Shown in pieces: positions 5,437 through 61,963 of a DNA stretch of 64,000 bases (within the stretch, counting starts at the first letter, position 1; each line of letters starts with the position of its first letter). Origin of the DNA: Diplonema japonicum. Taxonomy: Eukaryota; Protista; Euglenozoa: Diplonemea. The translations under genes were made by a program, and so were the position numbers. Where the stretch lies: the NCBI GenBank assembly GCA_964019335.1, contig OZ025721.1:186001-250000 (forward strand), read 5' to 3'. The notes beneath the pieces are model-generated. The model made no database searches. It was not told the DNA's origin and saw nothing but the letters and a program-made list of their open reading frames with translations.

Positions 5437-7996
5437 ATGCACGACAGCGAACTCTTCCACGACGGCGTGATCAAATGGAAAACGCTGCAGCACAATGGCC
5501 CCATGTTCGCACCCCCTTACGAACCCCACGGTGTCCCTATTAAGTACGAAGGGAAGGTCTTCGTTATGACTGAAGCGGAGGAAGAGGCTGCTACGCTGTA
5601 CGCTGTTATGAGGGAATCGCAGCACTACAAAAAAGCACTCTTCCACAAGAACTTCTTCACGTGTTGGAAGGAGATCCTCGACAAGAGGCCCGAGGGCAGA
5701 AAGATCAAAGAGCTCGCATTGTGCAACTTCGACGCCATCTGGGAAAAGTACTGCAAGGAACGCATCGTTAAAAAATCCCTCCCGAACGAGGAAAAAAAAA
5801 AGCTCAGAGAGAAAGCTGCAAAAGAAGCCGAGCCTTACATGTACGTGACATGGGATGGGAGAAAGGAAAAGGTCGCGAATCCCAGAATCGAACCCCCCGG
5901 TATTTTCCAAGGACGAGGGAAACATCCTAAACTCGGATGCCTGAAGCCAAGAGTCCAACCTGAAGACGTCACCATCAATGTTCAAAACGTGGATAAACCC
6001 CCACCCGCACCCAAGGGACACAAATGGGGTTCGGTGATCAGCGACAATACCGTGTTGTGGCTGGCAAAGTGGAACGATACACTCACCGGCGACACAAAAT
6101 ACACGATGCTTGCAAACTCCAGTGTGTTGAAGCAGGCCAGCGATAGGCTCAAGTTCGAGAAAGCAAGGATTTTGAAGGATAAGATCGACGACGTGCGTCG
6201 GGAATACACGAAGAACTTCTCCTCGAGAAACGAGAAGACGGTTCAGATGGCGGTGGCGATGTACTTCATCGACATCCTTGCTCTCCGTGTTGGCGGTGAG
6301 AAGTCCGAAGACGAAGCCGACACTGTGGGCTGCTGTTCCCTCCGCAAGGAGCACATCACACCAGTCGAAAGGGACGGGAAGTACATCTTCCACTTCCACT
6401 TCCTCGGGAAGGACAGCATCAGGTACGTGAACGACATGGAGGTCAGCAAGGTTGTCTTCAACCTTGTGAAGAAACTCTGCGAGGGGAAGGACAAATGCGA
6501 CCAGCTCTTCGACCTCGTGTCCCCTAGTGACCTCAACGCCCACTTTAAATCCATCATGGATGGGTTGAGCGCAAAGGTTTTCCGTACCTACAATGCTTCC
6601 TTCTTGCTTGATAAGGTATGCTTTGTTTTCTCCCCCTGGTGGGGGATGGAATCTAAAAAAAAGAAGAAAAAAAAAAAAAATAGTTCCTCCACGAGATGCC
6701 TGTAGACAACGACCTGTCGCAAGGCGAGAAAATGATGTACCTCAACAATACACACACCAAGGTTTGGATTTTTTTTTTCTTTTTTATATAACTCGAGCCG
6801 GGTTTTCAAGGGTGGGAGTGAAAACAAGATTTTACTTTATGTCACTCCCAGCTTTATTTTCACTCCCAGTTACCTTGAAATTAGGCCCAGGAGTGAATTA
6901 ATGTTCGAGCGTGAAATAATGTAACATTATTTCACTCCTGGGCCTAATTTCACCTATTCCACCTAGGTTTAGGGCAAGTTAACAGCAAGATCAACGCCAT
7001 CACCCAACGAAACTTCGGTAAAAAACAGCAGAGCTTTCCCGGGGTTGCACTTCTTTTGAAGAAAGCCATGAGGCGAAAAAAAAGCTTCGGTGTTAAGTCA
7101 GGAACAAATGAAAGAGTATCTGGCAGTGAAATTCAGCGACCCCTACAACATGTGTCAGGCATATGCAGCTTGCATGTTTGCAAGTGGGATGAGGACAAAA
7201 GAGTCGCACAAACTGAAATTTAGCGACGTTGTGTCTCCCACACACTGTAACCCAAATCCCAACCCTGTAACCTCCCACCCTTTCAAACCTGGCTCTTGTT
7301 AAAGAAAACAACGTATTAGTGAAAATAAGAGCATTATTCCACTTGTGGTGGCAGGTTTAACTCGTAGCTTTTTACTTCACTCGCTTCGCTCGTGAACTAA
7401 GATCCCTACTCGTTAAACCCCCTGCCACCACGCGTGAAATAATGCTATCTTATTTTCACTTAATAAATAGCTATTCTTTTTTTTTTTTTTTTTTTTTTCC
7501 AAAAACAACACGCACTTTATAGGTCGCGATTTTGTGTAACCATCAAAAGGCAAAGGCAAGTGGGGAAAACGAGTGGCGGAAGGAGCGCCTGAACAGCAAC
7601 AAAGTGGACGAGATGAAGACAACCTTGAAACACTTGGAAGCGGCGTTGGAGAATGTGAAGAAAGCAGACGAAGAACAGAAGGCACAAGTATTCACCGCAG
7701 AGAAGGAGAAGTTTATGAAAATGGAAAACGAAGCCCAGCTGGACTGGCTGAGACAGTATGGCACGGCAACGGAGCTGAAGCAGTACACAGAGGAGACGGG
7801 AAGAACCAAAAAAGAAGGAAGAAAAAGACCTTTGGACACCTGTGATGACGATGCCGAAAGACCTCTTAAAAGAGTCCCAGAAAAGACACAGAACAACGAG
7901 CCTATCGGCCGTGGAAAGTGCGTCTTCTCGCTTTTCTTGTCTTGCGCCTTGGGTGCACACGTCATGGCACTTCTTGCTTGTGTGAACCGAAAATAA
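5437..7996 (+). CDS. TOP1: Topoisomerase IB large subunit, copy 2 (no N-terminal extension); exons 5437-6615, 6684-6761, 7523-7996
   Basis: ALRVGGEK, GKDSI and KVFRTYNAS in exon 1. Phase-0 GT-AG introns restore FLHEMPVD..THTK|VAILCNHQK. No SKxNY catalytic Tyr domain. Confidence 0.85.
6786..7475 (+). mobile_element. Crypton-like tyrosine-recombinase transposon remnant inside TOP1 copy 2 intron 2
   Basis: Frameshifted SKINAITQRNFGKKQQSFPGVALLLK..KASVLSQEQMKEYL..FASGMRTKESHKLKFSDV (YR box I G-x-R). 21-bp internal inverted repeat 6877-6897/6931-6951 and a palindromic 3' end around CTCGCTTCGCTCGTG. Both ends are homologous to 19534-20358. Confidence 0.7.
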
Positions 7997-8737
7997 TTAA
8001 TTGAATTTTCAATTCTTCTTGCCTTCCCCTCCCCCTATAGACCGAACTTCGTTCGATCTTGACCCCCCCCTCAAAAAAATAATGCTGTTCCCCGAAATCC
8101 TTGAGACGATTCTTCCTATTGAAGGGGATGCGCTACGCGATATAAGCGACACGATGGGAGGAAATTTTGACCAAGACGGAATGGAACAAAGGAATATTTG
8201 AAAGGAAGTATCCACACACACACTCCCCTTACTGAATACCGTTTTGCTCACCCTGTGATTTGCCAGGTGTGCCAGGCCAGGACAGCCCCCCCCCACTGTT
8301 ATTATACTAATTAGATGGTAGACTTTTATTCAAAGTTTTAAACGTTACCCCCCCCCCTTTTTTTTAGAAGAAGTTTGTCAGGCCGGCATTTTCTTTTTTT
8401 TTTTTTTTTCTCAATTTCACCAGTGCAGAGTACTGGAGCCGATTTGTGGTGTCCGATTTTTCACCGAAAAGATTTTGGGCCATTCTCTCGAAACCCGCTA
8501 CCTCTGTTAAGAATGGTTCAATATCGGGAGCTTTTTCAGCAGTTCAGAGAGGGTGCATCTGCATAACTTGACTCGACAAAAATTATTCGTCCTCGAACAC
8601 TGCCTCACTCCAGCATGGGGGGAAGCCTTCTTCTTTTTAGAATCGTCGCTTCTTTGTTTTCCACAACAAAAGAATGCACGTTGTTATTTAATTGAGATCA
8701 AAGCACAGAAAAAAAAAGAAGAAAAAAAAAAAAGAAA

Positions 8738-11700
8738 ATGCCTGGAAGAAAAAGAAAGGTGGAAGATTCCGAGGACGAGGAAAGCAAGGAACAAGAGGAG
8801 TCGAACGATGGGTCCAAGTCGGACGATGGATCAAAGTCGGGGAAGGACTCAGCATCAGAGGACAACTCCGGTTCGGACTCGTCCGCGTCCAGTTCTTCGA
8901 CTGACGACAAAAAAAAGAAGAAGCCTAAGGCGGGAGGAAAGAAAGGCAAACGGAAACCTATTGAGGACTCCGACGATGAGAAACCTGCCAAAAAGAAGGG
9001 CAAAGCAGCCAAGAAACCCGCACCCAAAACCACCAAAAAAAAGAAGGAAGAGGAAGAAGAACCCGTCTTCGACTGGTGGAACCGCCCCGACAGCGAACTC
9101 GTCCACGACGGTATAATCAAATGGAAAACGCTTGAACAAAAAGGCCCCATGTTCGCACCCCCTTACGAACCCCACGGTGTCCCTATTAAGTACGAAGGGA
9201 AGGTCTTCGTTATGACTGAAGCGGAGGAAGAGGCTGCTACGCTGTACGCTGTTATGAGGGAATCGCAGCACTACAAAAAAGCAGTTTTCCGTAAGAACTT
9301 CTTCACGTGTTGGAAGGAGATCCTCGACAAGAGGCCCGAGGGCAGAAAGATCAAAGAGCTCGCATTGTGCAACTTCGACGCCATCTGGGAAAAGTACTGC
9401 AAGGAACGCATCGTTAAAAAATCCCTCCCGAACGAGGAAAAAAAAAAGCTCAGAGAGAAAGCTGCAAAAGAAGCCGAGCCTTACATGTTCGTGACATGGG
9501 ATGGGAGAAAGGAAAAGGTCGCGAATCCCAGAATCGAACCCCCCGGTATTTTCCAAGGACGAGGGAAACATCCTAAACTCGGATGCCTGAAGCCAAGAGT
9601 CCAACCTGAAGACGTCACCATCAATGTTCAAAACGTGGATAAACCCCCACCTGCACCCAAGGGACACAAATGGGGTTCGGTGATCAGGGACAACACCGTC
9701 TCGTGGCTGGCAAAGTGGAACGATGTAAACACCGGCGACACAAAATACACGATGCTTGCAAACTCCAGTGCGTTGAAGCAGTACATCGATAGGCTCAAGT
9801 TCGAGAAAGCAAGGATTTTGAAGGATAAGATCGACGACGTGCGTCGGGAATACACGAAGAACTTCTCCTCGAGAAACGAGAAGACGGTTCAGATGGCGGT
9901 GGCGATGTACTTCATCGACATCCTTGCTCTCCGTGTTGGCGGTGAGAAGTCCGAAGACGAAGCCGACACTGTGGGCTGCTGTTCCCTCCGCAAGGAGCAC
10001 ATCACACCAGTCGAAAGGGACGGGAAGTACATCTTCCACTTCGACTTCCTCGGGAAGGACAGCATCAGGTACGTGAACGACATGGAGGTCAGCAAGGTTG
10101 TCTTCAACCTTGTGAAGAAACTCTGCGAGGGGAAGGACAATCGTCCCATTAAAGAAAACCAGCTCTTCGACCTCGTGTCCCCTAGTGACCTCAACGCCCA
10201 CTTTAAATCCATCATGGATGGGTTGAGCGCAAAGGTTTTCCGTACCTATAACGCTTCCTTCTTGCTTGATAAGGTATTTGTAAAAAAAAAAAAAGAAAAA
10301 AAATTCTTTATTTCACTCTTCGTCATTTTCTTCACTCACTAGGGGCCTCATAATTTAACGCGAAACGGCCATAATTTAACGCGAAAAGCTCATAATTTAA
10401 CGCGAAATCGCCATAATTTAACTACCGGATTTGTACTTATATTGTTATGTGAAAAGTCCCAAATTGGGCAAAAAATTCGAAAAAGGTACATAATATTTAC
10501 AGAACACCATTAAAACAGAACATAAAAATTGCAAAAATAAAAAAAAATCACAGAAAATATCCCTAAAGATAAAAAATCCCAAGACAAAAACAAAATACCC
10601 CCCAGCCGGGGAGGGGGGGTGGTATTACCGCAATTCTAGTTCACTATTGCCCAGTCCTGCACGTAAAGCACACCACATAGTCGCAGGACGGGCCGACCCT
10701 CCCGGGTGCTCATGTCATGCTCACCAGAGCATTCCGTGCACTCCCACACTGGTCTCCTTTCTAACCTGCTTGAGGGTTGCGCTGCAGTTGGGGCAGGGCA
10801 CCCTCGTCACGTTGTTCGTTCGCTGGCTTGGGGTCACTTGGCTTGGTGCCGCTGCTTGGCTTGGGGCTGAGGCTTCTTGGTCAGGCATTTCTTCTTCTTC
10901 TGCTTCTTCGTCAGAAGAAAGCGCATCAGAAATGGCCTCTATGTCGAGGTGCCCAGCCTGCTGAACATCTCAGTGATCTCAATGTCCGGGTCTTCGGGTG
11001 CTGGTTCCGTGTCGACTGACAGTCCCAATGGATCCAATGGATCAATCTCCATCGGGTCAACTCCTGCATCTGCACCCAGCTTCTCGAACCAGCTCGACCT
11101 CGGAAGGCGGGGGCGGAGGGCCAGGCGAGGGCGCAGGGCCCTCGTGCAAAAAAACGGTAACGAGTGTTAAATAATGGCTCATTTAGCGGCAAGTAAGTTG
11201 TTTTATTTCACTTTTCGTCATTTGAGTCACTCACTCTTCACTGCTTTCACTGCTGTTTTTTTTTCACGCAGGTCAGCTTTTTGGGGATTTTCCTAAGGTA
11301 ATACAGGGCAGCTATTTCGCCGTGGCATTTAAAGGGGAAGTAAGGCACTTATTCCCACTTTTAAGGGCTGGAATGGCCTCAGATGGCCAAAAATAGTCAA
11401 AATACGCCCACCCCAAAAAAATTTTTCAAGGGGTTGGGTGCATTTTTTCCACGGCGAGACTCATTTTTCCACTCTGAAGGGCCATTATTTAACTGCAAAA
11501 TCACATTATTTAACTAGTTAAATAATGGCGATTTCGCGTTAAATAATGGCCATTTCGCGTTAAATCATGAGGCCCCTAGTGAGTGAAGAAAATGACGAAG
11601 AGTGAAATAAAAATAGTTTTTTGTATTGTTCTGTAAAAAGTCCCAAGTTGGGTCCAAAATCCGAAAAAGGTACATAATTTATACAGTACACTAAATCCCA

Positions 11701-12814
11701 AGACCATTATTAAAACTGAACAATTTAAATACAAATCCGGTAGTTAAATATGAGATTTTGGAGTTAAATTATGGGGCTTCAGAGTGAAAAAATGGGTCTT
11801 GTCGTGGAAAAAAATGTACCCGACCCCTTGAAAAAATTTTTTGGGGACGGGGTATTTTGACTATTTTTGGCCATCTGAGGCCATTCCAGCCCTTAAAAGT
11901 GGGAATAAGTGCTTTACTTCCCCTTTAAATGCCACGGCGAAATAGCAACCCCCATATTAAAGTTTTTTTGCTCGGCACAAGTTGCATGTAGTTATAAAAT
12001 CCATTTTTTGAAAGATAAATATTTGTAGCAAAAAAAAAGAAAAAAAAAGAAAAAAAACAGATTTTCCACGAAGAACCTGTGGACTCAAAGCTCCTCGAAA
12101 GCGAGAAAATGGTGTACTTCACTAATGCGAACACTAAGGTTTGGTTCAGAAGAAAAAAAAGAAAAAAAAAAAACAATTCTCATCTAGGTCGCTGTTTTGT
12201 GTAACCATCAAAAGACGATGGCAAAGGGACACGAACAGCAGAAGGAGAGTCTGAACAGCAAGGTGGAAGATTTGAAGACGACCTTGAAACTCTTGGAGGG
12301 CGCGCTGGAGAAAATCAACAAGGCCAAGAAGAACAAGCGGGGCGACGTGTTCAAAGTGGAAAAGGAACGGTACTGGAAGGTGGAGGACAAAATTCAGTTG
12401 ACCTGGCTTAAAAAATACGGCAAAGAAGAAGATTTGGAGAAGTATGAGACTGCAATGGAGAGGAGGAAAGGTGGGGGTGCAAGCCCGAAGAGGAAGAGAA
12501 AAGACGACAGCGACTCTGATGACGATAAACCCCTCAAGAAAAAAACCAAAAAAGCCGCGCCCAAGAAATCAAAGAAGAAGAAGGACGACTCGGAGGAGAG
12601 CAGCAACGACAGCGAGAGCGAAAAATCCACCAAATCTTCGAAATCGAACGGCAGTGGCAGCAAAAGCGGCAGCGACAGCGATTCAGACGAGAAACCCCTT
12701 AAAAAACGAGGCAAAAAAGCTGCAAAGAAAGCAACGCCGAAAAAAGCTGCTGCAAGGAAAGGACGCCGTAAAATGGAGCAATCAGAGAGCGACAGCAGCA
12801 GCGACAGCGATTAG
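8738..12814 (+). CDS. TOP1: Topoisomerase IB large subunit, full copy 3; exons 8738-10273, 12061-12138, 12188-12814 (about 746 aa)
   Basis: K/S/D-rich N-terminus and complete core with catalytic R, K, R, H equivalents (ALRVG, GKDSI, FRTYNAS, LCNHQK). The linker WLKKYGKEE and a K/S-rich tail follow instead of the Tyr domain, as in kinetoplastid TOP1L. Phase-0 GT-AG introns. Confidence 0.92.
10308..11946. mobile_element. Complex inverted-repeat element(s) filling TOP1 copy 3 intron 1
   Basis: About 60-bp IR pair (10308-10375 / 11550-11611) interleaved with an about 185-bp IR pair (11311-11494 / 11762-11946). Minus-strand frameshifted Cys-rich remnant CPNC..WECTEC..PSCDYVVCFTC at about 10645-10810. 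Segments recur at 54218-54405. Confidence 0.6.
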
Positions 12815-13313: not shown

Positions 13314-16300
13314 ATGGCTTATAAATACGTGTCTTCAGTACACAGACCAACGGCAGTGAAGCTCAGCACAGCTGGGGCGTTCGTGAGCCCGGATTCAAGA
13401 AATTTGGTCACGGTGCAGGGCTCAAGGGTGGCAGTGCACAGCGTATTTTCTGATGGTTTGAAACTTCTAGCAGATGAATGTGTGTACCACACAAAAATTT
13501 TGGCAGCGCAGCTATTCAGGCCGGTGAAACGGGACAGAGACCTACTTTTCCTTCTGTTTGAAGAAGAAGAGTGTGTGGTCATGGAGTGGAACCAAGTCAA
13601 CCCTGGTTTGAAACAGGTGTCAAGGCTCGATCTCAGCGAACCAATCGGTGTTCCGGTTGACCTAGAACGACACTCTCCCATGGCAATGTCGCAGGATCAA
13701 ACCCTGATGGCCTTTCATTTTATCCAAGGCCAGATCAAAATCGTGAAGATAAACGTGGATGGGACTCTGAAACACCCGTTCACACTCAGGCTCGAAGAGT
13801 TCCCGATCAACGATTTTTGCTTTGTGAACGAGGATGCGTTCAAGACGAAATCCCCTACTCTGGCTATTCTGTACCCACAAGACAAGCTGGTGCACCTCAA
13901 GACATACTGCATAAACGTCGAGAAGAAAACAATTGTCGAGGGAGCATTCTCTCAGAACAACGTGGAAAACGCCGCTCGAAAAATCGCCCCTGCACCATCC
14001 GGAATATTCATATTCGGAAGCCAGTTGATTTCGCACTTGAACCCCACGTCGGTTCGAACCATACCTATCACAGATTTCACCACTACAGAGAACGCTGACA
14101 CATCACAACGGCACGAAGATCCGGTTAGTTTTGAAGACACGTCTATAGTTGCATGGTGTGCAGTTGACGATACAAGGTTCCTGCTTTCAAACAGTTCCGG
14201 GAAGCTTTACGGCCTCACCATCACAAGAAAGGAGAAATACGAGTTGAAACTGGAAGCCCTCGGGTACACATCCGTCCCTTCAACCCTTTCATGGACAGGG
14301 ATCGATCCTGGAACGCTCTACGTCGGAAGCGGTACCGGCGACTCAATGCTTGTTCAAATGTTAACATCCCCCAACGAGGAAGACCAATGGATCAATATTC
14401 AGGAATCGTATTGCAACCTGGGACCGATCATGGACTTTGCAGTTGTTGACGCACCGTCTGGAAGCAGTCAGATCGTGTCATGCAGCGGGTCCGGCAAGGA
14501 TGGATCGCTCCGTGTCATTCAGAAAGGAATTGGGTTCACTGAGATCGCGTCCATGGACCTAGCAGGCGTGCAAGGCATGTGGAGTCTCAAAGGCCCCAAC
14601 AGCATCCACGAACGCTTCGTCGTTTTATCCTTCGTCGGGATAACGAAATTGTTAGAACTTCAATCTGACGAAGTAACCGAAACAGAAGCCAACGGGTTCA
14701 CAACCGACACAGGCTCGCTTTGGTGTGCTGACGTTCAAGACCGCTGGATTCAAATCACATCGCATGGCATCAACCTTGTCAACCCGGAGACAAGAGAGCT
14801 TGCGATGTCACTAGATGACTTTGAATCGAATGTGACCGTGGGAACAAGCAGCGGGGAGTGGGTTGCGTGCAGCATTTCAGGAGCTCTCCGAACGTTCCAG
14901 CTTAAATCTAAAGAGCTTGTTCCGAAATGCGGCAAGGACATGGGACATGAAGTGTCTTGCCTGTCCATTTCGTCAAATTACTGTCTGGCAGGGCTGTGGG
15001 ACGAACACATCGTGAGCATTTTAGATGTAGCATCTCTACTTGAAGTGGGAACGGTTTCAACGGGACTGTCGCTTCCCCGATCTGTGTTGCTGCATGATTT
15101 TGGTGAGTCGCAGTTTTTGTTCTGCGGGTTGGGCGACGGTGGGGTCATAACATGGTCGGTGGAACAAGCTACAGGTGGGAAACTTTCCATGACGGACGAA
15201 AGAAAGGTGAATCTCGGAACCCAACCGGTTACCTTGAAAGCTATAAAGACCACCACGCAGCAAACAGCGAGGGGGCAAAAAATCACAGAGACCGCGGTCT
15301 TCGTCTGCTCGGACAAACCGGCAGCCTTTTTCTCGCAGAAGAAAAGACTACAGATCTCGCATGTGAACCTGGGATCCGTGGCGATGGTCAGCCCGTTCAA
15401 CACACCATCACTGTTGGAGCAAAACGAGAATCATTTAGTGGTCATCACCACCAACTCTTTCGCCATTGGATACATTAACGGGATACAAAAACTGGACGTC
15501 CGAACCTACGCTCTCGGAAAGGGCCCCACAGCCATCACTCGCCACCGCCCATCTGGTACTTACGGGGTCCTCTGCGAAGAAGGTAAAATGAAACCAAACA
15601 CCGTCCAGTTGATAAGTGGAGTCAATTGGGAATCTCTTGCCTCATGGAAACTCGACCCTGAAGAACTAGCCTTATCCATATCCACAGTCTTCTTCCCTGA
15701 TGACGGGTGCGAGTACCTAGCAGTCGGAACGTCCTACACAGGTGACGAAGAAGAAGAACCGAAATCAGGACGGATCCTGATCTTCAAAATCTACGAATCA
15801 AGCAAGCTCAGCCTTGTTGCCGAAAAGGACGTTTGCGGAGCGGTTTATAAGATAACAGAGTACAACGGTTGTCTGTTGGCAGCTGTCAATGGGACGATTC
15901 AAATGTACAAATGGCAAGAAGGGGGCGGGCTGAGCTTGGAAGCCCAGCAAGCATGTCATCTCACTGCTATTTCACTGAATGTGAAGGGCGATTTGATTCT
16001 TGTTGGAGATCTATGGAGATCGGTGTCGCTGTTCTGCTACAAAGCTGTGGACAGTTCTTTCGAAGAGGTCGCTTACGACCAGAAGACAAGGAACGGCACG
16101 CTGATGGACGCTGTTATTGAGGACGATGACACGTTTCTGTTGGCCGACTACACCAGCTTGGTCACACTGTCTCAGTCGGAAGATAGAAGACTCGTTACGT
16201 CGGGCAAAATCAATCTAGGGAACACCGTGAATGTTTTCCGCAAGGGGACGCTTATCCATCAGGAAGCCTCAACTTCGCACAACGTCCCTCATGGGCATCA

Positions 16301-19300
16301 ATACGCTGACCCCGCCACAACCCTCCCCATCGACACATCGCGAAGCTGGATCTTTGGTACTGTGAATGGCGCGTTTGGCATTGCCACGCCGCTCTCCGCT
16401 TCTCAGTTTGCCTTCCTCGACACCATCCAACAAGCTATCATTAATGTATGAGGGGGGGGGGAAAAGAGGGGTTAGTGGCTGGTCCATCCGATGTAGTCGC
16501 GAAAGGAAATGTTGTTTGTAAATTAATATTTCTGATCTTGAAGCCACACAGGCCCTTTCGGGTATAACCTCTTGTCTCATGCACCGGGTTTAAAACCAAC
16601 TTTGCGCTCCGCTTAACCTTTTGTGGTTTCTCCCCCCGGGGCCACACATGGAAAAATCAAAAAAGTTTTCACTCAAAGGTTCACCGAATTTTTTTCCGGA
16701 AAATCATATGTCGCACATTGGGTCCATGACGCAAATATATCCATTCCAGCCTTAGAAAAAGCAGTAATTTTGTTGGCCATTTTGCAAAGGGTGGAGGGGA
16801 TCAGATAACAAGTTGGATAAATCAGAAAGTCCTGTTGCTCAGGGTTACAATTGTTAATTGTGTCTGTCAACCACAGGGTGAAATATAACGGTACTTTGGG
16901 TGGGGAGTGGGTGGGTTACTTCCTTTCTTATTCCTTTCGTTTCCTTCTTTCTGTGCGTTGTCCTTCCCCCATGCAATGCCTGTGGCGCAGTCAGTCTGTC
17001 TCTTGCCCCCTAGTAAATTCCTTTGACTGTCCTGCCCACGGCCACCTTTCTCCTTTCCATGTGTGTTCCTCATCGGGGGTAGGAGACTTAGCAGCCTCTG
17101 CTATGGGCCGAAATTGGAACAGCCGAAGAGGGCTGAATTATATTTTTCCCAAGAGAAAAAGGAAAAAAAAAAAAAACACAACAGGAATCGATCGGCACTT
17201 TAGAGTACCAACAGTGGAGGACGGCTAAAGATAGAAAGTGCGTGGAGCTCCCGTTTAATTACATTGATGGAGAAGTGATAGAAATGTTTGTAAACATCCC
17301 CTCAAAGCAACAGGAAACTATTGTTAAGAAAGTGAATGCTACACTAGGTGAACAAAAAAGAAAAGCGGTATGAGGAGGGGGGGAAAAGGAAAAGAAAAAG
17401 AAGAAAAAAAATAACTACTGTAAAACAAAAATCCACCGGAAGATAAAATATCCGGACCGCCGAAACATCCGGTGATTTTTTCTTCCGGACATTTTATCTT
17501 CCGGACATTTTTTTGGGGCACTTTTCAAGGGGGTACCTAGCCTGCCCTACGCACTGTCCCCTCCCCCTGTCTGCTGCATGTTTCCCTGGAAAAACTTATG
17601 TTTCTGTTGCAAGAGTCTTAAAAATGGCAAAAATAAAACTAAAAAAAGGGGGTGAGGAACGTCCTACCTGTCCGTCTTTGCTGCCTTCGCAGCCTTGGCA
17701 GTGCGCCTGGCCTCGGCCTCAGCAAGTCTTTGCTGGGTCAAGGGGGGGAGCATTTCTACCGAAGAAAAAGAAGAAGAAGAAACGGAAAACGAAGCTTCGT
17801 CCACCCAAGAAGCGGCGGAAACCGTACTTGTGTCAGATGACACGACAATCGTGTCATCCAACACTTCTCTGGCCCCTTCCAGCTGCCTAGCAAGCTTGGC
17901 ATATTGCTGGTCTTCCCACTCTTCATCCCACTCCCACTCTTCATCCCACTCTTCATCTCCGCAGCACGTCGCTGCAACGGCAATTCTCCCAAGCAGGACT
18001 CCACCAGGGCTCTAAAAAACGCCCGAAACAATGGGCCCAGCTTGCCTGTATAGCTTGCCTGCTGACATGCTCCCAGGCTGCTTCAACCCACCTGGCAGAA
18101 AAAAGAGGGCAAGTTGAATTATTTTAGTTTATTTTTTAAAAAATACCTCAGATGTGGTCCTTTTATCTCACTTGTACTTGGTACCGTCCACCCTTCCTGA
18201 CGGTTCCCTTCTTCCACATACTTGTCCAGCCTCCTCATAGACCACTTTTTATACTTGGTCTTGATTGTCGCCTTCATTGAGGCGTTCAGTCCTATGTCCA
18301 GGGGCTGGCACAAATAGGTGAGGCCTGGAGGGACAAAAGCTAAGTGAACGTTTGTTTCTAAAAACAAGTTCACAAAATCATCCGTAGTGTGGCCATTGTA
18401 GTCATCTAGGATGAGCAAGATGGGCTCGTTGGGTGCCCAGCCCGATGACTTTATAAGTTTATAGCAACAGGGGAGAAAGACACGTTTTACCCAGAGCTGA
18501 AGCGTTTCTTGGGTGGCCCAGTGGGATTTCGAAGCTGTTAAACTCCAGCCTTTTGGGGGGTGTGCAACACGAGGGACGGACCCAGGATATTTCCTGCAGC
18601 GGGCTGGTTCTCTTCTTCCCGTGTAAATTAACTGCGGATGCAGTTTGCCACCAGACAGAGAAACGCAAAACTGTCCGGTGACGGCACGCTTGTCCCCCAA
18701 GCCCCTAACCTTGACAACCTTGGAACCCCTTTTAGTCTTCGTCTTCTTCCCCAGCGGCAGCAGGGGAAGCGCCGTCTGGTCCATGTTCCAGGTCAACTCT
18801 GGCCTGATCCCATGTTCTTTGATGGTCCTTCCGACGTACTCTGCGAACCTCCTTGCTGCTTGGGTGTCATTGAGGCTGCTAGACTTCCCTGTTGTTGAGA
18901 CTCGTTGACCAGCGCTGGGCCGCCGTGGTACCATAGGTGGCTGCGTAGCGGCCTATTTTGGCCTTTTCAGCCTCAGCAAGCTTGAGCTTCGCAGGAGGCT
19001 TTCTTGCTTTCTTGGCGGCGTGCAAGGTGTTGATCTCTTGCACTTCCCTGGGGGTAAGATGGCCGGAGTTGCCAGCATCCAAAAAGGTACGCTTGCCAAC
19101 CCAGTTAGTCAAAGTGCCCTGTTGCATTTTTGAAAAAGTTAATGAAGAGTAAGTTTAATGAAAGATTAAGCGTCTGGAATGTGTTTAGGGGGCTAGGAAA
19201 ATGAGAAATAAAAAGCACAAGAACAACCCTAAAGCAAGCACAAGGAGTGGTTCGGTTCGACAAGTTTGTAGAAGCGAACAATCAGGATCTGAGGTATCTT

Positions 19301-20459
19301 TTAGTTCTTGGAAAAGTCCGTAATTCAATTCTCTCTGATTTTCGTTTGATTTTTCTCTTGCTACAGAAACTAGTTTCATCCGTTTTCGGGTCCAGCCCTT
19401 AAAAGAAAAGGGGGTCCCGGGAAAAAAATGCCCGGAAGAAAAAATATCCGGACCGCCAGAGCTTCCGGACATTTTATCTTCCGGACAATTTCTCTTCCGG
19501 ACATTTTATCTTCCGGTGATTTTTGTTTTACAGTATTTATTTAGTGAATATAAGATCCTATGATTTCACGCGTGGTGGCAGTGGTTTTGACGAGTGACGG
19601 TTATATCACGAGCGAAGCGAGTGTTATAACGTTTAACGAGTCAAAACTGCCACCACAAGTGAAATCATCAATCTTATATTCACAAATACGATATTTTATT
19701 TAACGACAGCAAAATTTGAGTGGGTGGGAGGTACAGGTGGTACCAGTTACAACAGGTGTCGGATATGTGCCTCGGTAGTGCACATGTTTCCTGCGAACAT
19801 CAACGCTGCATAAGCGTGGCGGACGATGCCATACCTCGGTGCTAAAGAATTCTGTTATTTGCTCTTGGGCAAAGATGTTCGCCTTTTTTGTTGACTCGCC
19901 TTCTTGGAACCTCTTCACAACCGAGTTTAGCCTTGAATAAACCGTCCGGACTGAACGGGCAGCAGGCCTTGCTTGTTCATGTCGCTAAAATAGAGAATAT
20001 AATCCTCTTCTTTCGGACGGGCCTTTCTTTTCCTTCCTATAATTATGAAACACACAAAAGCGTGCCCACTCCTTTTCGTATGGCTCTTGGAAGGGGGTGA
20101 ACCCTGCTGCGTCCGCCTCTTGTGCAGTCGGGTTCTTGCCCATCCCAAAGGAACCTTGGTAGGAATTTCTGGAGGGTTTTGCTTAAATTAGGCCCAGGAG
20201 TGAAATAATATTTCTTATTTTAACGCTATCAGAATTTTTTCACTCCTGGGCCTAATTTCTTTTAGAAGCCGCAGCGTGAAAATAAAGTCTAAAGTCAGGA
20301 GTGAAATAAAGTGAATTATTTTCACTCCCACCCATGAAAATTTTGGTGGAGTTAAATTTAAAAAAAAAAAAGAAAAAAAAAAAGGGAGACAGCAGCCCGA
20401 TAACGATTACAGTCCAACACCTCATCGACAAACTTGATCAAATAACCAGATTGCTGTAG
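13314..20459 (+). CDS. DDB1: DNA damage-binding protein 1; exons 13314-16445, 17185-17367, 20385-20459 (about 1129 aa)
   Basis: MAYKYVSSVHRPTAV, NLGPIMDF, CSGSGKDGSLRVI, LAVGT, ILVGDLWRSV. Exon 2 supplies SIG..QWR..YIDGEVIE and exon 3 supplies TVQHLIDKLDQITR. Both donors are GTATGA. Confidence 0.9.
17418..19533 (-). mobile_element. pogo/Tigger-like Tc1-mariner DNA transposon (degenerate) in DDB1 intron 2
   Basis: TIR CTGTAAAACAAAAATC(C)ACCGGAAGATAAAA flanked by TA on both sides. DDE_1 transposase WNMDQT..LLILDDYNGH..QPLDIG (18119-18934), N-terminal part 18879-19127 out of frame, C-terminal part reached via an intron at 18092-18146. Confidence 0.9.
19534..20358 (-). mobile_element. Crypton-like element remnant (its terminus continues at about 17409-17417, split by the pogo insertion)
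   Basis: Reverse complement matches both ends of 6786-7475. Internal IR AAATTAGGCCCAGGAGTGAAA at 20185-20205/20238-20258. Minus-strand remnant SVRTVYSRLNSVVKRFQEGESTKKANIFAQEQITEFF. Confidence 0.68.
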
Positions 20460-27096: not shown

Positions 27097-27099
<3 letters not shown>

Positions 27100-28686: not shown

Positions 28687-28799
28687 TGCGGTGTGATGGT
28701 TGATGTTTTGAGAATGGAGATTGGAACAAAAAGGTCCCCTGCTGATCCTTTGACCTACAGGGGTAACCACCGGCCCTTTCAGGTATTTGCCACACAGCA
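28687..28799 (+). ncRNA. Unknown structured RNA-like repeat, copy A
   Basis: Terminal stem GTGTG..CACAC, variable internal hairpin and invariant ACCACCGGCCCTTTCAGGTAT shared with 31532-31644 and 31811-31912. Confidence 0.45.

Positions 28800-29209: not shown

Positions 29210-29241
<32 letters not shown>

Positions 29242-30085: not shown

Positions 30086-30093
<8 letters not shown>
29242..30093 (-). mobile_element. Non-autonomous MULE-like element (internal-deletion relative of 3783-5377)
   Basis: TIR G(G/A)GAAAAACAACGTACACGGTAACCAAATAACTTTTTTCCAC, poly(T) on both flanks, retains transposase C-terminal remnant VTKSQIG..ATCKNPH..QSLLEVLS. Confidence 0.85.
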
Positions 30094-30130
<37 letters not shown>

Positions 30131-36703: not shown

Positions 36704-36738
<35 letters not shown>

Positions 36739-40541: not shown

Positions 40542-40914
40542 AGAAAGATGGAGGGGGAAAAGAAAAAGTGTCTCCTCTCCAATGATTATGATAAGTCTAT
40601 CTTCCCACATTCTCCCTTCATTTCTTCCATTCGCAAGAGAAAAAAAAAAAAGAAAAAAAAGAGAAGAAAAGAGAAACGTTGTAATTCCCCCCTTACCGGA
40701 TTTGGGTTTACGGGTATTCCACATTCACATATCGGTAAACAAAAAAAAAAAAAAAGAAGAAAAAAAAAGTGAGAATATTCGACAAGGTGCTCTTACGATG
40801 ATCTTCTCCCCCCCCCCCCAGTTTTTTGTAACAAAAAAGTATAGTTTTTCAGTTTTCTCTGACAAGCAAAAGATAAGCGTACCGAAGAAGGGGGGAAAAA
40901 AAAAAGAAAAAAAA

Positions 40915-42059: not shown

Positions 42060-42140
42060 AGAAGAAAAAAAAAAAGAAAAGAAAAAAAGTGTACTTTTTT
42101 TTTTTTTTTTTTTTTTTTCAAATAGTGTTCTTTTTTTTTA

Positions 42141-43086
42141 GGGAAAAACAACGTACACGGTAACCAAATAACTTTTTTCCACCGTCGCCTTAAACCTCCA
42201 ACTTTTTTTCCACCATCCACGGTAACCTGCAACTTTTTTTCCACCGTTCACGGTAACCTACAACTTTTTTTCCATTTTTTACTGTAACCACCAACAATTT
42301 CCCTTATACAACCACTAACTTTTTTTCCACCGTCCACGGTAACCTCCGACATTTTTATGCCTCATTGGGGTTTAGTACGAAATGTAGCGAGGGGGGCAAA
42401 ACATGATGTCATAGCAAAAGAAAAGGAAAAGAGACCTTTTAAGAGAAATAGGTGACTACCCTGAAGGCTGGGACTACAACCGGGACAGCACTTCGAGGAG
42501 TGATTGTGGCTGTGGCGCAGCGGTTGAGTAATGAGGGTTTTTACAAGTTGCTGTATTTATTTTCCCCTTCTCTCTCACTTCGCTTCCTCTTTGCTGGCCT
42601 ATCTGTGACTTCGTGACAACAGGGGGCTTGAGGTCATCCTTGGCATATCCTTCACAGGCAGGGGGGCGAGGGGTGGAGAAGTACATCAGACGCCAGATAC
42701 CTCGGCTTTGGCTTTAAATCGTCTTTGGAAATCGCCCTTGCCAACTTCCAGGAGAAATTCTTGGTGTCTTTTTTCGAGCCCTGGTTGTGCCTACACGTTT
42801 TTCCCAAATGCACACACACCTCCACCGTGGACGTTGGAAAAAAAGTTGTGGGTTTCCGTGGACGGTGGAAAAAAAGTTCTTACTTACATGGTTTAGTGGA
42901 AATAAAAAATAGGTTACCGTGGAGAGTGGAAAATTTTTACAAAAAAACCATTTGAGTGGAAAAAAGTTGTAGGTTACCGTGGAGAGTGGAAAAAAAGTTG
43001 TGGGTTACCGTAAACAGTGGTGGAAATTCTGCTTACAGACTTGAGTGGAAAAAAGTTATTTGGTTACCGTGTACGTTGTTGTTCTC
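42141..43086 (-). mobile_element. Non-autonomous MULE-like element, near-identical to 29242-30093
   Basis: Same TIRs and interior with extra subterminal repeat units, flanked by T-runs. Confidence 0.85.
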
Positions 43087-43169
43087 TTTTTTTTTTTTTT
43101 TATATAAAAATATCTTTCCTTTCTGATATCCCCCCCCACCAAAAAAAAAAGACCATCACAAAAAAAAAT

Positions 43170-44189
43170 ATGAACACCATTATAAGAAGAGGTCTGACAA
43201 GGGGAACGCAACGCACGGCGTTGATGCAAAAAAGGCAGATCGGCGGGCTTAGTGTCGGGGTGGGCGGGGGGAAATTAATGTGGGGAACGCTCGCGGTGGT
43301 CGGGGCGGGGTCCTTGACCTACGCAGCACGCTTGAAACAGAACAAGTCCCTGAAGGCAGAGGACGTCAACGACCTCACAGAGGTGGAGAAGCTCACGGCG
43401 GAAGACCTCAAGGCCCACGGCGTAACCCTCTACCGATACCTAACATGCCCTTTCTGCGGCAAAGTGAAAGCCTTCCTAGACCACTACCAAATCCCCTACA
43501 CATGCATAGAAGTCGACCCTTTAATGAAATCCCAAATGAAAGGCCTCGGATACAGCAAGGTCCCGTTCATGAAAGTCCACACCTCAGACAAGGAAAAAGA
43601 CCTCCACCTCGCGGACTCGTACGAGATAGTATCGGTACTGGGGAGAAAGATGGGCGCCGCCAACGATACAGAAGCAACGACCACATGGAGGAAATGGGCA
43701 TCTGAAGAATTCATTAGGTACCTTACTTTGAACCTGAACAGGACTCTGTCAGATGCGTGGAACTCAGCCGCTTACATCGACGTCGCCGATGAGATTCCCG
43801 CTTTTAACAAATTTATGTCAAAGGCTGTCGGTGCACCTGTTATGTACCTTATTGTTCAGCATTTAATCACTCGTCCCAAGCTTATGAAGCTTGGTTTTGA
43901 TGGGGGTGATGAACGGGCGGCGCTTTACACGGAGATGAACAAGTGGATCGACACTGCTGTGTGCGACAAGCCCTTTTATGGTGGCAAAACGCCTAACTCT
44001 GCGGACCTTGATGTGTATGGGGTGCTGAACGCCATCCGAGGTTTCCCTTTGTATAAGGATGTGCTGCAGAACACGAATGCGAAGGTGTGGATTTTTTAAA
44101 AAAAAAGGGGGGGGGATGTAAAATTTTTTTCCCAGGAGTGGATTGGGCGGATGGACAAGGCGTGCGGTCGTGAACCTTTTCAACTTTAG
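43170..44189 (+). CDS. PTGES2: Prostaglandin E synthase 2-like glutathione S-transferase; exons 43170-44084, 44136-44189
   Basis: Mitochondrial-type leader and TM, YLTCPFCGKVKAFLD, YSKVP, PNSADLDVYG. The final exon gives EWIGRM. Confidence 0.88.
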
Positions 44190-49053: not shown

Positions 49054-49145
49054 GTATGGTGCTTTTTTTTTTTTTTTGCTTTGGAAGAAAAAAAAAAAAA
49101 AAACTGCAGCCCATTCGGAGTAATCGGCGTTCTAATAATTGATTG

Positions 49146-58100: not shown

Positions 58101-60067
58101 TGCAAGCTGCTTTTCAGTCGGGTATCTTAACGTGCGATCGGTGCAAAAAACCAGCGTACAAGAAATCCGCCAAAAACACAATCACGATGGGAGGCGTTCC
58201 CGTGACGCGAGCCGACACGATTCGTTTCGTGCGGTCCACCGCCAGAGACGTCATTTACAAATCGGTGTTGGCAAGGGAACGCAGGAGGCTTCATCAGGTC
58301 GCGGCGGAAATTTTGGAAAAGGACCCGAATAGGCCTTTAACGGTGATGGTGCGGCATTACAGAAAAGCGCAACTGCAGGAAGGCTCGTGGAGGCATATTG
58401 CAAGCCTCTACAAGGAACTGATCAAAAAAGGGTTGCTCGAGGACGCGCTCATGTTAGAAGCCGAGCTGATTGCGTTCTCCGAAAAGCTTTGCACGATGAA
58501 GGAACGGCCTCCGGAGCCCACGCAAGTCGAGATTTTCCGTTGGGCCTTGGATGCTGTCCTGTGTCTGTTCGAATCCGGGCAGGTTGACGCTGCGGCAGCA
58601 AACGCATCTGCGATTTCATTCAAAGGACTAGACGATAAACCCCACCCCAAGAAATCAACTAAACAGAAACGTCGTGAATCGCATGTAGAGGTGAAAAAAC
58701 CACCCAGTTGCTTCGAGAAGGTCTTCTGCTGTTTTCCGAGAAAGACGGAGAAGCAAGCCGATGATAAAGAGAAGGAGAAGTCTCGCAGATCTATCTATCC
58801 TACTGACGAAAACGAACCTCCCTACCAGCTTCAAGCCTGCCTCGCTAGCATTGAAATCTCCTTCTTCAAAGGTGCCACGGACTTCACAAACCTATTCAAC
58901 CGGACCAAAACGTTGCACTTCGAGGGGAGCACGGCGCAGGTCCTAGAGAGCGCGATCGAGATCATGAGAGAGGGATCCACAAGGGAAGTCGGTCCGCCCC
59001 ACCCGTTCAGTTTATTCATGAAGTCGCCTGTTTCTATCCTTGCGACAGCAGGGTACTTGGACTACTACAAAAAACTGCTGCTCGTGGAAGATGCAATGTT
59101 ACTGCCTGAAAGTTTGAACCTGCTGCCGATTCAGGTGGACCGGGGGTTTCCCGCAAGGCCGTGCATTGCAAACGCATTGTTTTCCATCAGATGTGTGATA
59201 CACATGCTGAGAGGAGACGGGAGAGCTGCCTTCGAAGACTGCGTCAGTCTGACACGGCAGAAGTGCAAGGACGAACGCGCGTTCATGTACGCAAAGATCT
59301 TATCGTGCTTCTGTAGCATGTGGTATTGTAAATCCGCGTTGCCAAAACACGTGAAATGGGGAGCTGAACGGGGCTCGTCTGTCTTGGACCTCGCGGCAAA
59401 CGAGAACCTTGTCTTCCCCGACGTCTTCCTGGAGATTCTTTACGAGGTCTATGCTGAAACGTTCTCCCCAAAACACTTGAAAGCCTCCACCGTGCAAAAG
59501 ATCATCAACACGCCTTTCTTCACGGTCTTCCACGTGATGATAATAATCATGCTTCTTGACGTTATCCCACCCGACACGAAAGCCGTCTCGAAGCTCACAT
59601 CCAGGCTCGAATCCGTCTTGGAACACTTTCCCTATGCGAAACCGGCCTATCTGTATGTAAAAGCCCTGCACGCTGCAGATGAAAGCACCTCGTTGGATGC
59701 CTTCCGGGAGTGCATTCAGTACTGCATGAATGAAGGCTTAGTTGGCTCTGTTTTCGCTTTTAAAAGTGCGTGCAAGATGTTTGTCATGGAAAACGACGAT
59801 ATGCCGCCGATCGTAGTAACTTACTTGAACGAACTTGACTCACAGGACCAGAATGACGGGCAGGATGCGGTGTGTTCGCCGAAAAACAAGGCAGCAATGG
59901 ATTTACTCAGGGTATGGGGGGAGGAAAAAAAAGGGGGGGAAAGAGAGAAAAAAAAAAAAAAAAAAAAAGGCTGCAAAAAAATTTGCTTTTGGCGGGAACG
60001 AAGTCAGTATTTTGCGGTCAAAAGTGAAGCTGCGAAGGTCCCGGTCTCTCGTGTCCAAGAACCCTAG
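55181..60067 (+). CDS. Soluble adenylyl cyclase (ADCY10-like): two class III cyclase domains, P-loop AAA/STAND domain, helical tail; probable in-frame intron 59912-60007
   Basis: FIDIAGFS, FSGDA, KVMMDDKG, GDGVNISARL, YGRQQE..GEAKIGKT..VDDMQWLD. Confidence 0.88.
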   Translation: MQDEKTSAERVLALLPHVVIPRLGEKEEVSWVNEFQGSLLFIDIAGFSSVACMLQKFTNEGAEALSFHLNGYFTNLIGVVNRHGGDVIFFSGDAMMVAWKGIPVPVAASTALSCGAALLSETSEYSFTIESDTGQPTVSCTMTLHIGGACGSVHGMLVGGKGAPNLGKWKYLLVGKTVETVGLAASAGQNGELVVTQELITEARKNSSQALTSEVVFGGIAFRLFKSFVKEPKIPNNLVHKLPTLSNESLSRAVMYVFDTVIKAVESAPSQPGELRTVSTAFIKLSAININEDPVIIHGKLNTAVGIIQSQLSKFDGILNKVMMDDKGIICLCLFGIPLHGHENDAVRAVCFAMKSAKKLHKAIGVVSIGISRATVFCGLTGSPDRNEYTVLGDGVNISARLMIKAEEFSPKKRHIIIDEETTSAKGMDKLSEQDIAIIEGDFLILKGQDVPVKQYHVVTNKDRQQTLQRVMGEECSTSDESEIKSPSSRSSQNSLTSLDSQISRSSRATGKNKSAAASLLNFENARRRQRRFSQDSESNSDTASPNRLAHSSSSTGSSHQLKQKPRIRPPTRQRRSNGGMSPQNTHNSSSSSMLLDNQSLPSAESITLYGRQQEILDIKRIADEWITKNDGCGASIILSGEAKIGKTEVLNKSCSVIELPKVYMPSVDTSVKEQYMSLKGLVMNMLRETQIEWLIENLNPEAKKHLPLLHHVVRLPEIPLPEGKLSSMQQGEGETLINQLVIELVKCQYGPRIILAVDDMQWLDDTSAGFISDAFDSGFFILGTLRLDCIDNNMGQTDMVSIITGSYGDDSEETEVLPLVGQGLGHRKLHDSVLNGPNCTTIPITPLNQDNTAELMKSIIECNDFDHSLVAQVCEKADGLPGCIIEMTRALEDEAQVTVNVLGTVYKTLDADVDGLLSSVIPDSMEAAVMRDVDKLSLQERKVISMAAVLGSVFHYGLLSDCLLQEKHSLDSVQAAFQSGILTCDRCKKPAYKKSAKNTITMGGVPVTRADTIRFVRSTARDVIYKSVLARERRRLHQVAAEILEKDPNRPLTVMVRHYRKAQLQEGSWRHIASLYKELIKKGLLEDALMLEAELIAFSEKLCTMKERPPEPTQVEIFRWALDAVLCLFESGQVDAAAANASAISFKGLDDKPHPKKSTKQKRRESHVEVKKPPSCFEKVFCCFPRKTEKQADDKEKEKSRRSIYPTDENEPPYQLQACLASIEISFFKGATDFTNLFNRTKTLHFEGSTAQVLESAIEIMREGSTREVGPPHPFSLFMKSPVSILATAGYLDYYKKLLLVEDAMLLPESLNLLPIQVDRGFPARPCIANALFSIRCVIHMLRGDGRAAFEDCVSLTRQKCKDERAFMYAKILSCFCSMWYCKSALPKHVKWGAERGSSVLDLAANENLVFPDVFLEILYEVYAETFSPKHLKASTVQKIINTPFFTVFHVMIIIMLLDVIPPDTKAVSKLTSRLESVLEHFPYAKPAYLYVKALHAADESTSLDAFRECIQYCMNEGLVGSVFAFKSACKMFVMENDDMPPIVVTYLNELDSQDQNDGQDAVCSPKNKAAMDLLRVWGEEKKGGEREKKKKKKKGCKKICFWRERSQYFAVKSEAAKVPVSRVQEP

Positions 60068-60071
60068 GGTC

Positions 60072-60121
<50 letters not shown>

Positions 60122-60785
60122 CGTCGACATTGTTTTAGTTTTGCATGGTTTCCATTTCCATGGCGATCGTTTTTTTTTTTTTTTTCTTTTTTTTTTTCTC
60201 TGGCATCCACACCTATAACGTTTCCTTGATTTCTCCCCCTTTTTTTTTTAGTAAGTATCAAACAAAAAAAAAAAAAAAAAAAAAAGCAGCGTTTTTTTTT
60301 TTTCCGGCTCTGAAAATATGAGCAACTGAAAAAAAAAAGAGGGGGAGGAGAGGGAAGGTACGCATAATAAATGTCTAGTTTTTTTCCCCTCTTTTTCTTC
60401 TTTTTTTTTCTCGCTTCCGTAGGTGGATCCGGCGGTTGCGTCCCAACCCCCCCCCCTTTTTTTTTGTTGCTCTCTTCCGAGAGCAATAAAAAAAAACCAA
60501 GTACAACCAAGAAAAAAAAAGAGGGAAAAAAAATTGTTTGTGCGCACGAGCGGAATTTTACCTAAAAGAAAATAGCTCATTACGCTGCCATCAACTAGTT
60601 TTTTTTTCTTTTTTCTTTTTTTTTTTTTTAGTCTCGACAAATAAAACAAAGAAAATGCTTTCTTTTTCTTTTTCTTTTTTTTTTTCCCGCCTTGGCCCTC
60701 CTTTCCCCCTCTCCTTTTTATTTACCCGTCCTTCCCCCAACCATTTTAACCTTAAATTTATTCCCAGAAAAAAAAAAAAAAAAAA

Positions 60786-61963
60786 ATGGGGTTCAAGCTC
60801 AAACTGAAACAGAGGTCCGAAGAAGTAGTACAGGACTACTGCGAGAAATGTCACCAGTTTGGGCACACGTTCAGGGACTGTGGGATGGGCATCACCTGTT
60901 ACAAATGTGGGAAGGTAGGGCACCACGGAAGGAACTGCACGGAAGATATTTTTGTGCAATCTGTGGCGGTGCAGAGCGCTAAAGATCAAGGGCAATACAA
61001 AGCAGAGGACGCTTTATACGGGGACGACCGAAAAAAAACTGGAAATGAAGGAATCCAAAACTGGGACGAGCGGGCAAGAGCCGACAACGAACAGGACAAC
61101 AACGCACCAAGAGTTCTAACGGAACAAGACTACGAGGCAAGAGAAAAACGAAAATACGACCTCGTGTTGAGCCCGGAAGAGGAGGCAAAAAAAGCTCTAA
61201 AAGAAGCGAAAAAACGCAGAAAAGAGGAAAAAAAACGGCAGCACGAAGCCGACAAAAAACTCATCAAAGAGTACAAACAACGGGAAAAGACAAAAAAAGA
61301 GGAAATCAATAAACCGGAACCGAGCAACATGCTGCCTCCCCCGCTTCCAAAAGGACCCAGACCGGGGTTGAACCTCCCTCCACCCGAGGTTAGACAAGAG
61401 GTTAAAAAGGAAACCACAATAGAAGATAAGAAAAGAAAATATGCGGAAGAACAGGTGGCAAAGAGGAAAGAGGCAGACATGACGAAGAAAACCGAAGAAG
61501 ACAAGAAGCTACGATACAAGATGAAGAAGCAAAAGGAATACTTTGAGCCGCCCTCGTGGGCTTCGGTGAGAACCGACACAAAGCTGTACATCTCGGTGGA
61601 GAAAGACGGCCGGCAAGTCGAGTCCTGGGACATCTCAGACCACCCTTACTACCTCATTGGGAAGAACTCCGCTGTGGTAGACTTCACCATGGATCACCCG
61701 TCTGTGTCCAGGACGCACGTCGCCGTCATCCACGATGCTACAAGGAAGACCACGTTCATCCAAGATTTGAAGTCGCAGTGGGGCACCAAAATCGAGTCTA
61801 AAAAGTGCGCGGCGAACGAGCCGTTAAAGCTGCCTTTGGATGTTCCTGTGAAAATTGCAGGATCTTCGAGGATCTTGATCCTGAAGGTATGGATAGAAGA
61901 AAAACGAAAAGAAAAAAAAAAGTTTTTTTTTTTTTTCCACAGGAAAAATCGATGTGGGGCTGA
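60786..61963 (+). CDS. Two CCHC zinc knuckles plus a C-terminal FHA domain (kanadaptin/NIPP1-like); exons 60786-61886, 61943-61963
   Basis: Translated by hand (absent from the ORF track): CEKCHQFGHTFRDC, CYKCGKVGHHGRNC, EPPSWA..YLIGK..DHPSVSRTH..DLKSQWGT..GSSR. Confidence 0.8.

Follow-up and report, generated by a model that had tools for sequence, protein, structure and literature searches.

Introns lie towards the 3′ ends of genes in a 64-kb window of the Diplonema japonicum genome

Introns of intron-poor unicellular eukaryotes are usually biased towards the 5′ ends of genes (PMC3488318). The question raised here is how a genome could come to show the reverse. It concerns 64 kb of genomic DNA of Diplonema japonicum, a marine flagellate of the diplonemids, called the window and analysed over its full 64,000 nucleotides (nt), in which an earlier note had described introns confined to gene 3′ ends. 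The polarity does prove opposite to that of intron-poor protists (PMC3488318). All 14 introns lie at 0.68–0.98 of the coding sequence (CDS), with a median of 0.93, and fall in 10 of the 24 complete genes that were modelled, which together hold 34,878 coding nt.

Position of introns along the genes

With the duplicated copies of the TOP1 large subunit (TOP1L) and of a peptidase left out, 12 introns in 9 independent genes remain. Their median position is 0.944, far from a uniform distribution (Kolmogorov–Smirnov p 9e-7, n=12), and a per-gene Fisher test over the 9 genes gives p 1e-6. The last 150 nt of the genes, which make up 10.5% of the coding DNA, hold 9 of these 12 introns (p ~2e-7). The eight introns with transcript support are skewed when taken alone (p 3e-4). 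A simple intron-free zone of 600 nt behind the start codon was rejected (p 9e-4), mainly through DDB1, a soluble adenylate cyclase-like (sAC) gene and a zinc-knuckle/FHA gene, and the skew therefore follows the distance from the stop codon. Intron-free first exons reach 3.1 kb in DDB1, where transcripts confirm it.

The 3′ intron bias is real and statistically strong in this window, where introns are enriched towards the 3′ end along the CDS as in the ciliate Fabrea salina. That a strong bias holds genome-wide in D. japonicum, whatever its cause, is highly probable. Strict confinement to 3′ ends is much less so. The introns of TOP1L form a soft edge at 474–705 nt before the stop, TOP1L open reading frames (ORFs) of Rhynchopus-like diplonemids break in mid-gene, and one gene of P. 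papillatum has 20 introns (PMC10161547); the wording "only near 3′ ends" of the earlier note is too strong.

The genes themselves are well founded for the most part. EukProt proteins under the label Diplonema japonicum match the first exon of DDB1 with 100% identity, and on this basis the window is assigned to that species or a near-identical strain. The premise of a polycistronic, trans-spliced genome is borne out: the + strand carries every gene in the window, most with an A-run just 5′ of the ATG, and diplonemids have unidirectional gene clusters with a spliced leader (SL) on essentially all mRNAs (PMC10161547). Fourteen of the 24 genes are single-exon, namely 13 in 20878–54102 and a cysteine synthase gene at 261–1253. 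Ten of them match EukProt proteins exactly from the first to the last residue, including ORFs of 753 and 1047 amino acids (aa), which excludes hidden upstream introns in those ten; the other four, and all 5′ untranslated regions (UTRs), are without such verification. A scan of first exons for hidden in-frame introns (donor, homopolymer run, AG) found none. Outside the gene count stand a frameshifted TOP1L fragment (2823–3507) and a gene cut by the end of the window (62112 onward, 1.9 kb open so far).

Intron catalogue and evidence of splicing

Every intron has GT..AG termini as in U2-type introns, and none is of the non-GT-AG type of euglenids and hemistasiids. Twelve of the 14 are in phase 0, and lengths run from 45 to 3017 nt. 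The donors seen (GTATG, GTATT, GTATA, GTTTG and GTGTG) fit the D. japonicum consensus (G)/GTATG (PMC12621601). Transcript-level support exists for 8 of the 14 introns, direct for five (two each in DDB1 and TOP1L copy 2, one in PTGES2) and indirect for three (two in the gene starting at 40915, one in FHA). The remaining six, both of TOP1L copy 1 and one each in the ICME, EF-hand, 48379 and sAC genes, are drawn from sequence or paralogy. Of the sequencing runs, X1 and X2 come from two studies, are only guessed to be RNA and derive from a strain 2–5% different, and X5 is DNA-like; in both tables of read-alignment joints, repeat-derived joints crowded out most real ones.

The three-exon model of DDB1 (13314–20459, 1129 aa, first exon 3132 nt) is identical to transcript protein P0036. 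The intron expected after residue 1044 is there (16446–17184, phase 0, 739 nt, at 0.92 of the CDS), and a second follows after residue 1105 (17368–20384, phase 0, 3017 nt, 0.98). The latter contains mobile-element remains with repeats D14 and D17, and its A-run ends directly in the acceptor AG.

TOP1L copy 2 (8738–12814, 746 aa, three exons, first exon 1536 nt) agrees with the D. japonicum transcript protein P0325 in 744 of 746 residues, the two differences being residues of copy 1. Its phase 0 introns lie after residue 512 (10274–12060, 1787 nt, junction in P0325 and P0048) and after residue 538 (12139–12187, 49 nt, junction in P0325). Copy 1 (5437–7996), a 576-aa model identified by Pfam Topoisom_I_N and Topoisom_I and by tblastn against P0325, is without the acidic N-terminus, has a divergent tail and is 95% identical to the full gene in the core. 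Its two phase 0 introns, with GT..AG ends, occupy the sites of copy 2: 6616–6683 (68 nt, 0.68) and 6762–7522 (761 nt with a repeat insertion, 0.73). In both copies the introns thus fall in the last third, as the earlier note had it, at 0.68 and 0.72–0.73 of the CDS. A third intron of copy 1 is possible at ~7918–8040, seven codons from an alternative stop. The two copies and the frameshifted, divergent fragment form a tandem array of three TOP1 large-subunit copies over 2823–12814.

In the PTGES2-like gene (43170–44189) the phase 0 intron at 44085–44135 (51 nt, 0.94) corresponds to a 51-nt GT..AG joint (44082–44134) in X1 and X2; X3 and X5 are unspliced there. The gene at 40915 (348 aa, without a Pfam family) has two phase 1 introns. 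The first (41840–41884, 45 nt, 0.88), about 40 aa from the end as proposed earlier, is bracketed by X1 and X2 pieces that end at 41836 and belong to contigs that also cover 41913, while X3 and X5 are continuous. The second (41978–42030, 53 nt, 0.97), 9 aa from the end and newly added, is suggested by the leftover of an X1 contig (139 letters), which would fit both exons spliced. For the FHA gene (60786–61963), an X1 piece ends at 61887, the donor of a phase 0 intron at 61887–61942 (56 nt, 0.98), with 19 letters left over, and three orthologues close with a homologous 6-aa tail.

Among the six introns without transcript support in their own gene, that of the ICME-like esterase (27097–28487) lies at 28360–28412 (phase 0, 53 nt, 0.94); the unspliced ORF is absent from the protein collection, a weak indication. 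The calaxin-like EF-hand gene (39832–40541) has its phase 0 intron at 40435–40481 (47 nt, 0.91), and its spliced length fits the 211 aa of calaxin. The last exons of 24 aa (ICME), 19 aa (EF-hand), 17 aa (PTGES2) and 6 aa (FHA) agree with the earlier prediction. In the gene at 48379, a likely phase 0 intron (49054–49109, 56 nt, 0.95) has a GTATGG donor, an A-run and a CAG acceptor. Pieces of X1 and X2 end at 49052, but so does the DNA-like X5, and this intron is therefore counted as supported by sequence only. The sAC-like gene (55181 onward, first exon 4731 nt) has a likely phase 0 intron starting at 59912, at 0.98 of the CDS. The acceptor may be 59969 (intron 59912–59969, 58 nt, 35-aa last exon) or 60007 (19-aa last exon); 59969 is the more likely, as it would fit the other introns better. 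X1 and X2 coverage of this junction is of little use, and searches for a D. japonicum transcript protein of sAC or FHA gave none. Every intron listed in the earlier note is present with GT..AG ends; the list lacked the 48379 intron, and its last exon for sAC was the less likely 19-aa one. Annotation that overlooks such tiny last exons will give wrong C-termini in genomes of this kind.

When the last intron is retained, two genes keep a stop-free frame into the next one: the EF-hand gene into the 40915 gene, over 160 codons (39832–41862), and FHA into the last gene, over 75 codons (60786–63998). A fusion was rejected in both cases, because calaxin has 211 aa and because FHA orthologues end 6–7 residues past the donor. 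From the non-coding stop rate, the chance of meeting no stop is ~0.005 for the EF-hand gene and ~0.08 for FHA; the read-through is probably a coincidence in homopolymer-rich DNA.

Loss, gain and the origin of the skew

The history of TOP1L bears on whether the 3′ introns were kept or added. A TOP1L alignment from diplonemids, used to scan metagenome contigs, yielded 62 loci, none of them diplonemid. Twelve of these, picked as multi-exon-looking, were aligned by a spliced-alignment program, which in a control found both D. japonicum introns. Seven of the 12 non-euglenozoan loci have a phase 0 intron exactly at the D. japonicum site after residue 538. All seven are plant-like by best match or sister to plant-like loci, and the site is shared with plant-like and alga-like TOP1 genes. 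Their 8–12 introns are spread from residue 165 onwards, and D. japonicum has none of the upstream ones. Its site after residue 512 differs by a single codon from a plant-like one. Three loci, among them L031, which groups with fungi and nematodes, have another set of introns and share none. With one ancient 3′ site kept and no upstream sites, this one gene suggests that old introns may have survived on the 3′ side while upstream ones were lost. At the shared sites copies 1 and 2 differ greatly in length (68 versus 1787 nt and 761 versus 49 nt), and mobile repeats therefore enlarged existing introns after the TOP1L duplication. The earlier note had left open whether introns were tolerated, gained or retained near 3′ ends; the little evidence that bears on direction speaks for retention or loss rather than gain.

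Other diplonemids were surveyed through unspliced ORF calls on long ENA contigs, noting the first break in homology. Where homology was lost after a valine, the break was read as a phase 0 GT donor, a reading made from protein sequence alone. ORFs below 0.55 of the query length drop out of the homologue searches, which so favour long first exons. Only the Rhynchopus humris-like P0321 escapes this bias, as it was taken from a cluster list to which no length filter applied, and it still runs unbroken for 345 codons. The raw calls run for 345–1131 codons before the first break, and two break at D. japonicum sites: P0002 (Rhynchopus-like DDB1, 1131 codons) at the first DDB1 intron and P0051 (TOP1L, sister to Flectonema in a quick tree, 527 codons) at the first TOP1L site. 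The Rhynchopus-like DDB1 intron at this site reads as CA-rich, not A-rich. The R. euleeides transcript P0055 diverges at 0.62 and is probably a retained-intron transcript. The FHA orthologue P0170 (393 aa) is unbroken, without the FHA intron, and the alignment of P0327 (1882 aa), a homologue of sAC, reaches nearly to its end. None of these diplonemid ORFs breaks in the first 40% of the protein. The skew seems to extend to other Diplonemidae, where it is probably a bias and not a rule. The Rhynchopus-like ORFs P0002 and P0321 come from contigs of identical size (2,069,603), and DDB1 and TOP1L may be linked there too. The P. papillatum FHA orthologue P0168 (DIPPA_20568) is seemingly fused to ~1030 upstream mobile-element-like residues, probably an annotation error.

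In trypanosomatids, trans-splicing is driven by a pyrimidine tract, which at the same time determines the upstream poly(A) site. The introns of the window hold few pyrimidine tracts: pyrimidines exceed half of the last 30 nt in only 3 of 14, and the acceptors of 10 are A-rich, not pyrimidine-rich, with an A-run in 10 of 14. In a post hoc comparison, the best 20-nt pyrimidine count has a median of 12.5 in the last 60 nt of introns versus 19 in windows of the same length upstream of 25 start codons, which stand in for mapped trans-splice sites (p 4e-4). The closer an acceptor is to the stop, the richer it tends to be in pyrimidines (Spearman -0.66, p 0.018, n=12; not significant with all 14, p 0.079). 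The departure from a polypyrimidine tract is already known for D. japonicum, in which the commonest base of the tract is A genome-wide (PMC12621601). A likely leader-addition site lies at 49429, 17 nt upstream of the ATG at 49446: the alignment of an X1 contig begins there from an AG preceded by a pyrimidine tract and leaves 19 letters ahead of it unaligned.

We tentatively favour, at somewhat below an even chance, the reading that the 3′ introns are survivors, left after upstream introns were lost through a clash between cis acceptors and SL trans-splicing. The 3′ splice site of each cis intron would also be a potential SL target, a cut site within the polycistron. Mis-cutting or failed splicing at an early intron would ruin the gene, and at an intron near the stop would still leave a nearly complete protein. 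Since such damage would be least near the stop, intron-less alleles arising by cDNA recombination would be fixed mainly for upstream introns, and the surviving introns would shed their pyrimidine tracts. In trypanosomatids the leader is found on cis-intron acceptors, in 1/2 and 2/6 reads for PAP1 and in 1/12 and 2/12 for RBP20, and SL-exon2 isoforms are known from both T. brucei and L. mexicana (PMC11613528). A bolder version is doubtful: Diplonemidae may stand midway to the nearly intron-free kinetoplastid genome, polycistronic trans-splicing having purged 5′ introns genome-wide, with near-stop survivors marked as cis by their A-runs and hidden from the SL and poly(A) machinery.

Several points weigh against loss through such a clash. 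The TOP1L introns and the first DDB1 intron are harmful to mis-cut, with 85–235 residues lost, and the cost argument fits only most introns. The Rhynchopus-like TOP1L ORFs P0321 and P0058 break after 345 and 420 codons, at 0.44–0.53 of the protein. The absence of the FHA intron from P0170 allows for gain near 3′ ends, and the ancient site after residue 538, the only one of its kind, could be a parallel gain at an AAG|GT site. The acceptor tests were post hoc, no read with SL on an intron acceptor was seen in the D. japonicum data examined, and the basis is a single window with nine independent genes. The intron still present in T. brucei PAP1 lies on the 5′ side, in the first quarter of the gene (PMC11613528), hemistasiids and Sulcionema are intron-rich (PMC12621601), and F. 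salina is 3′-biased (PMC13685798). Trans-splicing is therefore neither sufficient by itself nor clearly required for a 3′ bias. The group to which F. salina belongs is not known to trans-splice.

Alternatively, cis-splicing could be efficient only near the 3′ processing site. There is no cap before trans-splicing, so that the help given to early introns would be lost while coupling of the last intron to polyadenylation remained. This reading, the closest to the idea of the earlier note, is unlikely, although the skew follows proximity to the stop, other diplonemids also have long first exons, and cap-binding complex and cleavage factors have been proposed to shape intron placement (PMC2586383). 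The same work expects 3′-end factors to inhibit splicing (PMC2586383), the median 3′ UTR of P. papillatum is ~800 nt, so that a position near the stop is not necessarily near the poly(A) site (PMC10161547), and introns of 1.8 and 3 kb, with donors far upstream, are still spliced. The composition of the acceptors is the one feature of the window that would point to the link with downstream trans-splicing or polyadenylation suggested in the earlier note. Neutral cDNA-mediated loss of reversed polarity is improbable as well. Here reverse transcriptase (RT) would prime on the A-run in an unspliced last intron, or the cDNA end matching the mRNA 5′ end would invade first. The frequent A-runs would suit such priming; P. 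papillatum has >2000 RT-domain proteins and kinetoplastid intron losses are exact (PMC11613528), and the bias of F. salina is attributed to 5′-preferential loss (PMC13685798). However, in most lineages priming of cDNA at poly(A) produces the reverse of this polarity (PMC3488318), the DDB1 intron of the Rhynchopus-like ORF reads as CA-rich yet occupies the same site, and the pyrimidine-poor acceptors are left unexplained.

It is quite improbable that the window is unrepresentative or that 5′ introns were missed, with no strong genome-wide bias behind the pattern. Such doubt draws on the single window, the 6 of 14 introns without transcripts, the four unverified single-exon genes and 5′ UTRs, and the length filter of the homologue searches; against it, the eight transcript-supported introns are skewed by themselves, 12 genes match transcript proteins end to end or nearly, and the unfiltered P0321 is also long. 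It is very improbable that introns were gained preferentially near 3′ ends, by routes such as mobile elements or the expansion of A-runs in C-terminal tails under weak constraint: the missing FHA intron of P0170, the variable tails encoded by several last exons and the repeats in four introns speak for it, but the repeats entered introns that already existed, after the TOP1L duplication, and the introns of TOP1L and DDB1 cut through conserved domains and recur in other genera, one of them also in plant-like genes.

Four introns hold repeats, which sit only in the interior of long introns and recur between genes (D14, D17, D18). The introns do not form families alike from end to end, as introners do, and paralogous ones differ 15- to 26-fold in length. 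The 1787-nt intron of TOP1L copy 2 carries nested inverted-repeat elements (inverted repeats I1 and I2). Within the second DDB1 intron, 17400–20340 contains nested repeats and a 271-aa minus-strand ORF (18119–18934), possibly a transposase remnant, and related repeats recur at 36400–36720. Between genes, a ~100-nt unit occurs three times (~28690–28810, 31540–31650 and 31810–31920); by eye its copies are candidate box C/D small nucleolar RNAs (snoRNAs), and Rfam at gathering score gave no match, these snoRNA-like units included. A ~170-nt GC-rich intergenic element, possibly a small RNA or a short interspersed element, occurs twice (~33780–33960 and 35650–35800), the second copy being followed by a 21-nt tandem array (35849–36209). 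Three related intergenic elements (3780–5390, 29220–30120 and 42130–43090) have long, internally repetitive inverted ends and T-run flanks.

Comparison with known systems

A 3′ intron bias is already known as a kind from F. salina, and for diplonemids no earlier report was found in the literature searched, with the supplements of PMC10161547 and PMC12621601, which might hold one, outside the search. The main texts of these two papers describe splice sites, lengths and counts in Diplonemidae but, in the passages concerned, not the position of introns along the gene; the relevant passages of PMC11649378, PMC7859406, PMC12817076 and 10.64898/2026.01.29.702485 are likewise without intron position.

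The 5′ bias of intron-poor genomes is a main support for RT-mediated intron loss. If the sister group of kinetoplastids does show the opposite polarity, it would be a second clear exception after Fabrea and, as far as the literature search reaches, the first in a polycistronic, trans-splicing lineage. It bears on the near-total intron loss of trypanosomes, for which, it is stated, no polarity could be determined (PMC11613528), and on how one spliceosome distinguishes cis from trans acceptors.

With intron-poor protists and yeasts the window shares a low density (14 introns in 24 genes), many single-exon genes and GTATG-type donors, and differs in its opposite polarity (PMC3488318). Like the canonical introns of Diplonemidae, those of the window have GT-AG ends, the (G)/GTATG donor, the A-rich D. 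japonicum acceptor, a short median length and transposons in the long ones (PMC12621601, PMC10161547). The kinetoplastid introns of PAP1, DBP2B and RBP20 are also cis introns in a polycistronic, trans-splicing relative, with the leader sometimes on the acceptor, and in DBP2B and RBP20 the intron lies 3′ of the conserved domain. However, only three kinetoplastid genes have introns, that of PAP1 is in the first quarter, and the positions are unlike those of P. papillatum (PMC11613528). The closest likeness is to F. salina, an intron-poor heterotrich with an extreme 3′ enrichment, explained by 5′ loss, in a group that also favours phase 0 (PMC13685798). There the result is genome-wide and heterotrich introns are mostly ~15 nt long (PMC13685798), whereas in D. 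japonicum introns of 45–3017 nt with A-rich acceptors, in polycistronic trans-spliced genes, are seen in one window and scattered orthologues.

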